Assembly: GCF_030028105.1 (NCBI RefSeq)
Contig: NC_092394.1
Location: forward strand, 16,345,939 to 16,409,938
Direction of reading: 5' to 3'
DNA length: 64,000 nt
Origin: Mobula birostris
Taxonomy: Eukaryota
Shown here: positions 33,495 through 42,059 of the stretch, in pieces
Numbering within the stretch: position 1 is the first letter of the stretch
Layout of the letters: every line of letters begins with the position of its first letter
Translations under genes and position numbers: made by a program
Notes under the pieces: model-generated
The model's database searches: none
Seen by the model: only the letters and a program-made list of their open reading frames with translations
What the model was told of the DNA's origin: nothing

Positions 33495-34739
33495 TACATT
33501 TTAAGCTGCAGAAAGCAGCAGGGATGGAGGAAAAAGAACAATAGTGTGTGTCTGTGTGTGTGTATCACCAGGATTGAACCCAGGTCACTGGAACGGAGAG
33601 GCATCAGCCTTCAAGCTATGCCATGTGCTGTGCAGATGCTGGGCACCTGAAACAAAAACAGAAAATGCCAGGGGTACCTGGCATTCCAGCGGCATCCGAG
33701 GATGGCAGAACCCGGAGAGAAGTGTGGGGGAAAGTCACCACAAGTTAGTGGCTTATCATATAGTTAATGGGCCAAATGGTCTTATGTCAGCAGGATGGAA
33801 ACAAAAGGGGGGACGATTTTCCAAATTACACCTGTAGTTCTGAGGGAAAAATAGTCCATATGGCTTCATCTCCAGGTAGAAAGAGGGAGGGACAAAAAAA
33901 AAATGAGTAAGATACTCCAGTGCGCAGAACATCTGATACAGCATCATCCAAATTCTATATTTTGTCCCAGAAAATATCCCAGGACTCACTCCAAGAATAG
34001 CAGTGGAAAAGTGGACTAGAACCTTAGTGTAGTACGGGAAAGCAGTTTGCAACTCCCAAGCACTTAAGTGACCTCACACGCAGGTCAAAACTGAATTTCA
34101 GTGTCATATCTGTGCCAATGAACTACAAATATTCCACGTTTATTTCTTATACCACAGTTGCTCAGAGCCAGCAAGCTCTGAGGAACAGTTTTGTGACCTA
34201 TTTATCTGATTTTGGTAATATGTCTGGTGGGGAGGGGGTGGGGGGTTACTGCAGGCCTCACTTCTGGCAGCTTCACAGACATCGGGTCCCTCGAGGGGAA
34301 TCGTACGTTAACCGTAGGTTCACTGAAGGCACACAATAATTGCAAAGTGACAAATGATCTGCATCAAGACCTCAATCAATATTCTCACTTAAGATAGCCT
34401 GCAGTCATCACATTGTTCCCTCGTTGGCCACAGCAGGACCTGGTTCAGGTCGGGTCAAGTCTGGCAAGGCGTATGGGCTCAAGCCGGGTCAGACGCCGCC
34501 AGCCTGCCTTGGTACTTCTTCCAGACTGACTGCATGCATGCATCCATCAATCATCAATATTTGGGTTAATTTGATCACGGGACATGGATCCTGTTCACAT
34601 CAACACTACCGTCCATCCTGAAGCACCTCAATTCTAAAACCCAACATAGTGGGCAAATTTAATAAACAAAACAGGCCAACAGATCAATTGCACAATCATT
34701 TCCTAGGATTAGTACTTTTTTATTTTAAACTGATCCTGA

Positions 34740-35903
34740 TCCCACACAGGAGATTAGTGTGCAAACTTAAAGCACACGGTATTGGGGGTAAGGTATTGGT
34801 GTGGGTGGAGAATTGGTTAGCAGACAGGAAGCAAAGAGTGGGAATAAACGGGACCTTTTCAGAATGGCAGGTGGTGACTAGTGGGGTACCGCAAGGCTCA
34901 GTGCTGGGACCCCAGTTGTTTACAATATATATTAATGACTTGGATGAGGGAATTAAATGCAGCATCTCCAAGTTTGCGGATGACACGAAGCTGGGTGGCA
35001 GTGTTAGCTGTGAGGAGGATGCTAAGAGGATGCAGGGTGACTTGGATAGGTTGGGTGAGTGGGCAAATTCATGGCAGATGCAATTTAATGTGGATAAATG
35101 TGAAGTTATCCACTTTGGTGGCAAAAATAGGAAAACAGATTATTATCTGAATGGTGGCCGATTAGGAAAAGGGGAGGTGCAATGAGACCTGGGTGTCATT
35201 ATACACCAGTCATTGAAAGTGGGCATGCAGGTACAGCAGGCGGTGAAAAAGGCGAATGGTATGCTGGCATTTATAGCGAGAGGATTCGAGTACAGGAGCA
35301 GGGAGGTACTACTGCAGTTGTACAAGGCCTTGGTGAGACTACACCTGGAGTATTGTGTGCAGTTTTGGTCCCCTAATCTGAGGAAAGACATCCTTGCCAT
35401 AGAGGGAGTACAAAGAAGGTTCACCAGATTGATTCCTGGGATGGCAGGACTTTCATATGAAGAAAGACTGGATGAACTGGGCTTGTACTCGTTGGAATTT
35501 AGAAGATTGAGGGGGGATCTGATTGAAACGTATAAGATCCTAAAGGGATTGGACAGGCTAGATGCAGGAAGATTGTTCCCGATGTTGGGGAAGTCCAGAA
35601 CGAGGGGCCACAGTTTGAGGATAGAGGGGAAGCCTTTTAGGACCGAGATTAGGAAAAACTTCTTCACACAGAGAGTGGTGAATCTGTGGAATTCTCTGCC
35701 ACAGGAAACAGTTGAGGCCAGTTCATTGGCTATATTTAAGAGGGAGTTAGATATGGCCCTTGTGGCTACGGGGGTCAGGGGGTATAGAGGGAAGGCTGGG
35801 GCGGGGTTCTGAGTTGGATGATCAGCCATGATCATAATAAATGGCGGTGCAGGCTCGAAGGGCCGAATGGCCTACTCCTGCACCTATTTTCTATGTTTCT
35901 ATG
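34740..35903 (+). mobile_element. Young 5'-truncated CR1 LINE (RT C-terminal half plus 3' UTR)
   Basis: SGVPQGSVLGP and KFADDTKL motifs. One in-frame TGA (35183) separates the two ORFs. Ends in (TTTCTATG)2. Confidence 0.95.
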
Positions 35904-38481: not shown

Positions 38482-39837
38482 ACAGTACCATTTAAGGGGG
38501 AAAGTCCCAATCCTTCCCCCTCCCTCCCCCACCCCCAAACATGGAGGCAAGATCCTCTACAGTTCAAATAAGACAGAACATCAAAAAGCAGCCTGATCCA
38601 TTCCAGATTAACTAACTCCACAGCAGAACCACACACAAGTTATCTTCTGCCCCACAGTAAAATGAGCTTGGTGGATGGTCCCTTGAAAAGCAAGCACCAC
38701 CCCAGCATGCAAATTCTTGGTAGGCAGATCATCAATAGTGTAACCAAACCCTGGCTACTGCTTTGGTTAAACAAAGTATTAAATGGATCCAGCCATTGAA
38801 GAATCGAGTTCATTAGCAATAGCAAGTTGGAATAATCCAGCCTCGCTTGAGGCTGCAGAAAAACAATTTCCTGTGCAAAATGCTTTCCCAACAGTCATGC
38901 ATCAGGAACATTATTAGTATCGTGTGAGCAATGTTTGCACAGAAAACACTGGTTCCTTTCTGGTCATATTGTAGAAGGGCACGAGCTTATTTCAGCTGCG
39001 GGTGGGGGGGGGTGGATTTATTGTGTTCCCATCCAGCCCCACCCCACATCACCAAAATGAGACGCAGCATCCTCAGTCTCACATCCCTAATCTCCTTCAC
39101 ACACTTCTAAACACTTTTATCGTCTCGTCTCAAACTAAATTATGTAACTGTCACCACATACTACCTTGAGATTCGTTTTCTTACAGGCACCCACAGGAAA
39201 AAAAAAGAATCTACAAAAAAAAACCATAAACGTACAGAAATTATATATAAATCATACACAAGAGAACAGAGCGAGTCGACAGCCAGGTCAGAAACGGCTA
39301 GTACAAGGGGGCAAAGTTTTAAGACTGGTGGACAGTATAGCAGGGGGTGGGGGAGATGCCAGGGCAAATTTTACTTATTTATTGACATACAGTGTAGAAC
39401 AGGCTCTTCTGGCCCTTCAACCCTCCACTTAACCCTGGCCTAACCACAGGGCAATTTACAATGGCCAATCAACCTACCAACCGGTAGGTCTTTGCACTGT
39501 GGGAGGGAAACCCACGCGGCCACGGGTAGAATGTACAAACTGCTTACAGGCAGCGGCGGGACTTGAACCCTGGGCCGCTGGTACTGTAAAGCATTAAGCT
39601 AGGCTCTACACTACCACGTTCATTACACTGCGGTGAGTGATGGAACACCTTGCCAGGGCTAATGGTAAAGGCAGACAAACTAACAACATTTAAGAGACTC
39701 TCAGACTGGCACATGGATGTCAGAAAAATGGCAGGGGAGGTGGGGAAGCTGTGTGGGAATGAAGGGCTGGATTGACCTTAGCGTAGGTTAAAAGATTGGC
39801 ACAACATTGTGGGCCGAGGGGTCTGTACTGTACTGTA

Positions 39838-40032
39838 GGGGTGTATGGGGTGTCAGGGAGGGTTAGCACCTCTGGTGGGGGAACATGTCTCGTCCTTTTC
39901 AGGGCGGTTAGTCCACCTTTGGTCCCCACCTGGCACTCAGCTCTCACCTGTGGCTCCCCGTAGCTGTTCGCATGCGACAGCAGCCACACCCCGGGCCAAC
40001 GGCTCTGACAAGCCCGCTAAACCAGGTGAGGG
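39838..40032 (+). ncRNA. HDV-like self-cleaving ribozyme candidate
   Basis: P1, P1.1, P2, P3 and P4, an L3 starting UCCCCG, and J4/2 CUAA are all present in the correct order (coordinates in findings). Confidence 0.75.
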
Positions 40033-40400
40033 TAGCCGACAGGTCTCAAACCCTCGGTGAGATAGGGAGATACCTATGCCAGCATGTGAAGACAGACTCT
40101 GGTGGATTGAGCAGACGAGACCAATGGAAGGTCCAACGGTCAAGAAGGCGGTCTCTGCAAGTGTCGTGGAACGTGTAGAGCACGACAAGACACAGAAGAC
40201 ATCCTGGTCATCCACTGCACCTAGTCCCATCTCCAGCCATCTCGATTCTGTCTTGCCACTGGATCCAGGTGGGAATTGGGAAGCGAGAGTGAGGCTGACA
40301 CTGCGCAACTCTCCCTCACTTAAATCCAGATCACGCGCTAGTCTCGACACCATCAATGGTGTCGAGGTCTTCATCGACGACGATGATAGACGAACAACAA
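39838..40400 (+). mobile_element. Non-autonomous RTE-like retroposon (5' UTR plus 3' tail, no ORF)
   Basis: Inserted in a CR1 tail. TSD TACTGTA(G) at 39831-39838 and 40404-40411. (CAA)n 3' end. No tRNA A/B boxes seen. Confidence 0.8.
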
Positions 40401-42059
40401 CTATACTGTAGTATTCTGCGTTCAGTACCTGCAGAGGTGAGATAGGCCAACCATCCTGGTTGTTTCCGACTGGGATTGTTTGCTGTTCACAGGCCTGTGG
40501 AGGATTTCTGTTGCAAACAAAGGCAGACCAACAACAAATGCGCAAAAGACAAACTGTGCAAAAAAAAATAATGAGAACGCGAGTTGTTTCCGGTGCAGGT
40601 CAATGGAACCAAGCAGAATAATAGTCTGACATGGACTCGATGGGCTGAAGGCCCTGTTCCTATGACTGACTCTAAAAGAGTTCTTGAAAGTGAGTCTAGT
40701 TCATAGAATCAGTTTGGGATTGTGGCGAGTGAAGTTAAGCACGCCAGTTCGGGAGGTGTTGTCATGATGGCGTTTACGCGCTGGTCCCAGAACAGAAGCT
40801 CTGATGCGTTAACACCAAGGAATTTAAAGCTACTGACCCTCTCCATCTCCGATCCCCCTAATGAGAACTGGCTCACGGGCTCCCAGCCTCTTGCTCAGTT
40901 ACAGCGACGGAGATACAATACAGAAAGAGGCCTTTCGGGCCATCATGTCCTTACTGAACATCAAGCAGCTACTTCAACTAATTAATCCCATTTTTATTCT
41001 CCCCACATGTTCCTCAACTGCCCTCTTATCCGAACACGAGGAGCCATTTTGTGCCACATCACCATGACGAGCCGCACATACTTGGGAAGAAACTGGAAGC
41101 CCATGAAGTCCTGAGGACATGGAAACTCAGATGGAAGTTTATTAAGCCAGGTCTATGACGATGCAAGACAGTGGTTCTACTAGCTACATACGCCACTGTG
41201 CCACTCACAACAAAAGACACTGCCGATCCTTAAACCAAGAAGCCACAGTTGTATAACATTGCTTACAGTACAGCAAGTTTCCGGTTGCCAACAAGCCTCA
41301 AAATTCACTCCATGTGGGAAAAAAAAGGCGGGGTGCTGGAAATTACACCCCTATTCCCACAAAACCCTTGGAACTCAGGTGGTATACAAAATGGTACCTG
41401 TAGCTGTTCCATTCTGTCTGTGCAGCTCTGAAGAGGAGAGGTGCCTGCAATAGTCACACACCCACAGGCAAATATACTTAAGTTCTCCTTAGCCCTCGTT
41501 TCCAACTCCTATTGGGCCTACTGCCATGTTCCTCCCCCAAACAGTGCATGCATGGAGTTAATTGCCTCTGTGAAGATTTATTTTAATCATAAAGAAAATG
41601 CTGGGAATGCAAGTCAAAACTTCTCCTCCTCCTTCCCGCCCCTCAATAAAACTGCTTGGCAACTTCAGAGTTTTAGACATGAAACTAATTTGGAATCACC
41701 AATAGCTTGCCCCAATATGGAAAATGGACCTCCACTGCCCTGTGGCTCAGGAGCAGGGTGACTCAGATAATCCTCCAGACCAGGGATTGACAGGTTGTTC
41801 TTTTCACCATGTTAAGATTCTACCAGTTCCCAGAGGTTCTGCTGGGCATTGTCAAGGTCTGCTTCAACTTGTTATTTCGGGAGGTCAGTGGTAAGGTAGT
41901 TGTGATCACTGACAACAGCAAATTGGACAACATCCTACAATAATTCAGCTCAGGACTGAACCTTCCTAGTCTGGAGCCCAGATACGAACATTTTAAATTT
42001 GGAAATGGGGAAGTAAGAGAGACCTGTGTACTTGGCACACAGGACAGCCAGTTAAACTC

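Follow-up and report, generated by a model that had tools for sequence, protein, structure and literature searches.

A conserved L3 hairpin in the predicted HDV-like ribozyme that heads an RTE-type retroposon family, and a candidate downstream partner for its loop

Results

The window analysed here, a 64,000-nucleotide (64-kb) stretch of the Mobula birostris genome, contains a 566-bp non-autonomous bipartite RTE-type retroposon (family A) at 39838..40403 on the + strand, the strand of all features given below. A search of the 4.0-Gb genome returned 3190 candidates for this element, with the top 40 at 94–100%, and the window copy together with the best 29 other copies of these candidates formed the family A comparison set (30 copies). 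Homology begins at G39838, past unrelated flanks, and stops near 40403 at a (CAA)n tail (40388..40403). GGGG stands at position 39838 in 23 of the 30 copies, one to three G being missing in the other seven, and exact duplications of 8–14 nt abut the 5′ end in 11/30, the window copy included. In the window, the 5′ target-site duplication TACTGTAG occupies 39831..39838, its last G being shared with the first nucleotide of the element (G1), and the matching 3′ duplication TACTGTAG lies at 40404..40411. Both the target-site duplication and the microsatellite tail of a bipartite RTE are present in the window element.

The makeup of the element is also that of a bipartite RTE, since its 5′ 518 nt (1–518) and 3′ 45 nt (518–562) match the two ends of a 4.1-kb parent. 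Identity to the parent locus L270 is 92% for the first part and 87% for the second, and to L272 86% and 89%. Parent-type loci encode Exo_endo_phos (APE endonuclease) and RVT_1 (reverse transcriptase) domains, with both activities in one long frame; in the relative L123 this frame is 1158 aa long, with matches to LINE-1 ORF2 and zinc fingers. From this layout of a single frame, APE plus RT and a CAA tail, we take family A to be of the RTE type. Where the 5′ part meets the 3′ part, 40343..40366 forms a hairpin with a 10-bp stem, so that both ends of the parent can pair at the site of the internal deletion. Three loci (L054, L042 and L041) are intermediate derivatives with ∼140 nt of extra parent sequence between the two parts. 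Family A and its 5′ boundary were also found in DNA-sized contig sets from four other organisms. Elsewhere in the window, 34622–35185 holds an RVT_1 fragment from a different LINE, with no tblastn match to the protein of family E (see below), and 39412–39620 a short upstream repeat, present too in the flank of L026, which resembles a cartilaginous-fish SINE.

Sequences related to the 5′ part of the element were grouped into six lineages: A (window), B (73% identical, found by flanking sequence alone), C, D (reached by searching proteins) and, from metagenomes, L146 and L172. The latter two are the true relatives among 53 metagenome matches. Prokaryote genomes gave one pattern match; viral contigs gave six, of which the four inspected were unrelated, and no protein relative. 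Two further loci (L032, L050) have family B-like cores in which the P1 5′ strand and most of J1/2 are swapped for a common unrelated sequence.

The 5′ end of the element is predicted to adopt the nested double pseudoknot of HDV-like ribozymes, with P1, P1.1, P2, P3 and P4 identified by a relaxed descriptor and pair counts. The P1 5′ strand (39838..39844) pairs with 39986–92 and starts at G39838, so that the first nucleotide of P1 is the 5′ end of the element as defined by copy starts and abutting duplications. It is followed by a 98-nt J1/2 (39845..39942) with a P1.2-type helix (39848–57/39929–38) drawn from the fold and lineage alignment, by the P2 5′ strand (39943..39951), which pairs with 40021–30 around one bulged C (97.8% of cells paired), and by the P3 5′ strand (39952..39954), unchanged in 10/10 rows. 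The descriptor and pair counts place the P3 3′ strand (39983–85), the P1 3′ strand (39986–92) and the GG of P1.1 (39993–94) in 39983..39994, ahead of J1.1/4 and P4/L4 (39995..40015), where three P4 pairs show two-sided change between lineages. J4/2 (40016..40020) reads GCUAA, its putative catalytic C40017 and the following U-A-A fitting CNRA in the descriptor and lineage alignment, and this C is retained in all seven lineage sequences; the P2 3′ strand with the bulged C (40021..40030) was placed from pair counts. The six-lineage consensus fold adds two hairpins 3′ of the ribozyme (40035..40080; ∼40035–58 and ∼40064–80), the second of which is damaged in the window copy. Across ten natural copies from six lineages, 96.7% of cells in the drawn structure are paired, and the structure outscores 500 of 500 shuffles on three measures, chiefly through P4. 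Because of the element boundaries and the HDV-like precedent, we infer that cleavage would occur just 5′ of G39838, liberating the element from host transcripts.

The fold may instead sit in a register shifted by one step (8-bp P2, 4-bp P3 and 6-bp P1). In the family C loci L093–L117, P1 position 7 is apparently a C facing A, which would favour the register with a 6-bp P1 and 4-bp P3. A second GGGGUGU, at 39847, also passes the descriptor as P1; it was set aside, as the copies begin at 39838 and the 39847 stretch pairs in P1.2. Rfam gave no matches in the 64-kb window, so no HDV-like model reached its gathering score there.

Loop L3 spans 39955–39982, between the P3 strands at 39952–54 and 39983–85, and is 28 nt long. 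Its canonical part, UCCCCGUA (39955..39962), comprises seven nucleotides that match TYYHCGY, with C39956–57 in P1.1, and a linker A. The remaining insert, which a preliminary description of the locus had recognised as a 19-nt hairpin at 39963–39981 within an HDV-like L3, reads as described and proved to be a conserved structural variant in an RTE-type 5′ end. That description had drawn it with a bulge and a CAUG tetraloop; RNAfold returns this form for the window copy (−6.3 kcal/mol), but it does not represent the family. Since C39969 is specific to the window copy and is T in 29/29 other family A copies, the family hairpin is a 6-bp stem (39963–68/39976–81) with a 7-nt loop (39969–75).

Lack of conservation among copies had been named as grounds for rejecting the variant; conservation was instead found at several levels. 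The 19-nt hairpin is present in 29/29 other top copies of family A, and the insert occurs in all six lineages (A, B, C, D, L146 and L172), with a length of 19 nt in A–C and of 17 nt in D, L146 and L172, which have one base fewer per arm. When the genome was matched with fixed flanks and a free insert, 2,747 matches had an L3 of 25–36 nt and 45 an L3 of 7–24 nt; the latter are nearly all distinct deletions, with no amplified short-insert subfamily. Invariant columns make up 13/21 of the insert and 8/10 of a downstream strand with its GAAG (the loop partner proposed below), as against 33/107 in J1/2 and 55/232 farther downstream. The stem shows no two-sided change, although 56/56 cells are paired. 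The L3 hairpin is thus confirmed as a conserved trait of the family and not a chance structure. Among the sequencing runs, X1 contained one deep contig without 11 nt of the hairpin (window 39965–39976), and X10 a contig carrying the 17-nt form.

The window copy itself differs from the family at several sites. Besides C39969, it has A39982 (G in 20/29 other copies), an extra C at 39996, a G>C change at the P4 base 40015 and damage at 40070–78. With these changes it is likely to be impaired: a decayed member of the family with P4-base and loop lesions, it may cut poorly or not at all.

The published HDV descriptor specifies L3 as TYYHCGN{0,1}Y (7–8 nt), limits J1/2 to 51 nt and requires a P2 of 6–8 bp without a bulge (PMC4870747). 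In our own re-implementation of this descriptor, the site fails on all three counts: the first seven nucleotides of L3 fit TYYHCGY, but the total of 28 nt exceeds the limit (the relatives E and F have 7 nt), and the 98-nt J1/2 and the bulged C of P2 lie outside the published ranges. A long J1/2 is already known among large HDV-like members (PMC4908430). The expectation that descriptors with a fixed L3 would miss this variant was borne out, L3 being just one of three causes. The site was recovered only with L3 length, J1/2 length and P2 bulge all relaxed. The relaxed descriptor gave a single match in the 64-kb window and none in 10 Markov controls, and it was passed by 22/29 family A copies, 13/30 D-enriched loci and 0/30 old B copies.

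A helix competing with the ribozyme fold, UGUGGCU (39949–55) with AGCCACA (39982–88), is present as previously pointed out and is the local minimum-energy helix in RNAfold. In the family its inner pair is U•G, since 39982 is mostly G (20/29). The proposal that it acts as a folding switch was not supported. The extended helix is invariant across lineages and thus shows no covariation, and P1 is favoured before the P2 3′ strand exists: nested-only ensembles at that stage give P1 ∼0.98 and the extension 0.03–0.14 in the family and 0 in the window copy. Once the P2 3′ strand is included, P1 and P2 exclude each other in a nested-only model, whose values then reflect that choice rather than the full double pseudoknot. 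The P1 5′ strand ends in the same UGU, which makes displacement of the extended helix by branch migration plausible. The extended P3 helix, like a +3 slip of the hairpin's 5′ arm onto the P3 3′ strand, is likely to be a folding intermediate and not a switch.

Six bases of the hairpin loop (39970..39975) are complementary to GCAUGU at 40082..40087, the window form of a family motif GCRUGY that precedes GAAG. This strand lies 52 nt beyond the ribozyme and ∼110 bases downstream of the hairpin tip, right after the two downstream hairpins. In the six lineage sequences, loop and partner pair in 36/36 cells, the top score of 312 gap-free windows, followed by the near-palindromic loop itself with 34 and a further window with 28. 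In this count family B is represented by a loop whose CpG was restored; as called, its loop pairs fully as well, by means of U•G. This candidate third pseudoknot has G•U, G-C or A-U at pair 1, U-A or (in D) C-G at pair 4, and C-G or U•G at pair 6. In natural copies 59/60 cells are paired, compared with 0–72% in slid registers. Decayed single copies frequently carry mismatches: loop and partner are fully paired in 21/27 scored copies of A, 0/3 of B (of 30), 4/4 of C (of 10) and 9/18 of D (of 20). Loop and partner of family D are complementary and non-identical (U-A to C-G, one two-sided change), which excludes plain duplication. Covariation of the knot alone does not beat shuffles, as 57/500 letter shuffles reach its score, and the only two-sided change falls on CpG positions in either strand, so that decay could imitate it. 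Single-sequence folds frequently bury the partner strand in other helices. Dimerisation through the loop palindrome was considered as a general role and rejected because the loops of D and E are non-palindromic.

Family E has the same ribozyme core with an L3 of 7 nt, exactly 21 nt fewer, and an unbulged P2. Downstream of the ribozyme it carries a different 6-bp hairpin, whose 7-nt loop is identical to the D1 loop and stands in the same geometry; this loop is complementary to the partner in 24/25 scored loci (of 28). Such a hairpin arose in 35/5000 shuffles (0.7%). The C-G state of the knot appears matched in both D and E, which are not sisters, and in most E loci, which are young, the 5′ half of the ribozyme has been replaced and the knot kept. 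This relocated matching hairpin constitutes the strongest evidence for the third knot. A scan of families F and G for a knot with a 7-nt loop gave only scattered matches, apparently due to chance.

In a tree of the endonuclease (250 columns), from which family B was left out for want of a protein, family E is placed together with A and L146 (100/100), whereas C, D and L172 fall outside this group; L146 and L172 each have the insert upstream of an endonuclease frame. An AU test rejects a clade of hairpin bearers without E (p-AU 0.006, 12/27 rows, for a group chosen after inspection of the tree). Because E nests inside the hairpin-bearing lineages, it most likely lost the L3 insert, provided that 5′UTR and frame share one history; recombination of the 5′UTR is a possible alternative for its short L3. 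The short-L3 ribozyme occurs in 5/25 E loci, four of which share one upstream flank, and in one locus more, and none of these passes the relaxed descriptor because the P1 5′ end is clipped. In most of the family E loci surveyed (L200–L220, L123 and L125) the sequence that replaces the ribozyme 5′ half joins in L4 and is GC-rich, with a TATA-like stretch; it may be a captured promoter in place of self-cleavage. The outgroup family F (L255–L269; 832 candidates) is a separate LINE with a canonical HDV-like fold, in which L3 also reads, by eye, as 7 nt and J1/2 as ∼190 nt. Family G (L140, L142) has a related endonuclease and no HDV-like core readable in its 5′UTR.

Discussion

HDV-like ribozymes are known at the 5′ ends of RTE and other non-LTR retrotransposons (PMC6765202, PMC5786205), as are bipartite non-autonomous RTEs with predicted ribozymes (PMC5786205); in the literature searched, what is apparently new is the L3 hairpin together with the proposed third knot. 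The RTE 5′-end ribozymes (Ruminski et al. 2011 type), as presented in the accessible parts of PMC6765202 and PMC5786205, have the same double-pseudoknot layout, CNRA J4/2 and G1 at the 5′ end; family A differs by its 28-nt L3 with a hairpin, its bulged P2 and the proposed third knot. RTESINE2, WALLSI3, RTE-N2_Lch and Bov-A, like family A, retain nothing of an autonomous parent but its two ends, the extreme 5′ end included; the accessible text of PMC5786205 gives no ribozyme structure for them. Four short family motifs were not found in one searched supplement of PMC5786205, and family motifs gave a single, unrelated match in the searched supplements of PMC4844689 and PMC5786205.

The drz-Agam-2 type shares with family A a long J1/2 with a P1.2 helix joining P1 and P2, but in the accessible part of PMC4908430 its peripheral domain is described in J1/2 only, without an L3 insertion. 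R2 ribozymes resemble family A in the length variation of J1/2 and P4, the conserved U•G in L3 and a cleavage that frees the element from a cotranscript, whereas their L3 is conserved and changes only in spacing, no L3 helix being found in the available text (PMC3774820). Extra pairing of L3 through a palindromic stretch is seen in crystal dimers of the CPEB3 ribozyme (bioRxiv 10.1101/2022.09.22.508989, in the part available); there the core L3 pairs between molecules and P1.1 is lost, whereas the prediction for family A is an intramolecular pairing by an appended hairpin that would leave P1.1 free. The same source notes that a 7-nt L3 suffices in CPEB3 and antigenomic HDV ribozymes. In the accessible literature on R2, Agam-2, trypanosomatid and theta ribozymes and in reviews, no L3 helix was found. 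More broadly, neither an L3 helix nor a third pseudoknot in an HDV-like ribozyme was found in the literature searched, which covers the field in part and stops short of Ruminski 2011 and Webb 2009/2011.

In the HDV ribozyme, U27 at the 3′ end of L3 is extruded from the core. In family A, the hairpin would project from this variable 3′ end of L3, leaving U-C-C..G, P1.1 and J4/2 in place. The reading that we favour with moderate confidence, given the sequence, its conservation, the element boundaries, the loop complementarity and the loss and relocation of the hairpin, is that the hairpin serves as a docking arm. The ribozyme would cut just 5′ of G39838 and free the element from host transcripts, and the hairpin loop would dock on 40082–87, the resulting third pseudoknot anchoring the ribozyme to the 5′UTR domain that follows. 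The arm is proposed to be dispensable for the catalytic core. The knot would act in the overall shape of the RNA for retrotransposition and not in the chemistry, because the sister family E keeps the same knot from a hairpin elsewhere. A bolder extension, which we put forward only tentatively, is that these RNAs form a triple-pseudoknot class of HDV-like ribozymes in which a portable module of hairpin and strand, inserted in the catalytic loop, couples self-cleavage to 5′UTR folding as a cotranscriptional checkpoint and can leave the ribozyme while keeping its partner.

Among other explanations, the docked loop might act on cleavage itself, as a brace or timer that holds the hairpin in register and blocks a 3-nt slip of its 5′ arm onto the P3 3′ strand, turning cutting on only after ∼250 nt have been transcribed. 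The +3 slipped register does pair 98% of cells, its probability in nested ensembles is 0.15 for A, 0.31 for the window copy and 0.6 for D, and peripheral domains can accelerate HDV-like ribozymes almost 1000-fold (PMC4908430, as far as accessible); however, the slip is 0 in L172, and the knot persists in family E without any L3 hairpin, even in the majority of loci that have no ribozyme 5′ half. We regard such a role as unlikely. Still less probable is a tolerated passenger, a self-contained insertion at a permissive position that is kept by descent, with a downstream match that is a coincidence aided by the palindromic loop. Such an insert would account for a stem without two-sided change, knot covariation that does not rise above shuffles, the clean loss in E and the canonical 7-nt L3 of the outgroup F, but not readily for an insert and partner far more conserved than the flanking 5′UTR, for a relocated donor hairpin in E whose shuffle chance is 0.7%, or for 45 shortened copies that include no amplified short-insert subfamily. 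A folding switch, in which the extended P3 helix would stack on the hairpin and form a stable off state competing with P1 and P2, seems very improbable: the extended helix has the lowest local folding energy in each of the six hairpin lineages and reaches 0.4–0.65 in some nested ensembles with the P2 3′ strand present, but P1 dominates before P2 closure and its 5′ strand could displace the helix, the perfect 7-bp form requires the A39982 of the window copy, and neither covariation nor a trigger was identified.

Docking of the L3 hairpin on the downstream 5′UTR thus remains the preferred reading, and the conserved hairpin has consequences for how such elements are found. Since published HDV-like descriptors fix L3 at 7–8 nt, a hairpin-bearing ribozyme lineage with thousands of copies per genome escapes them. 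Should the third knot prove genuine, it would be a long-range contact that nature has added to the HDV core, and the site of the L3 hairpin would offer an insertion point for ribozyme engineering. RTE 5′UTRs are currently optimised empirically for gene-writing templates (PMC13708176, in the part available), and the knot, again if genuine, would give them a testable structure. Families A, D and E together provide a ready natural experiment.
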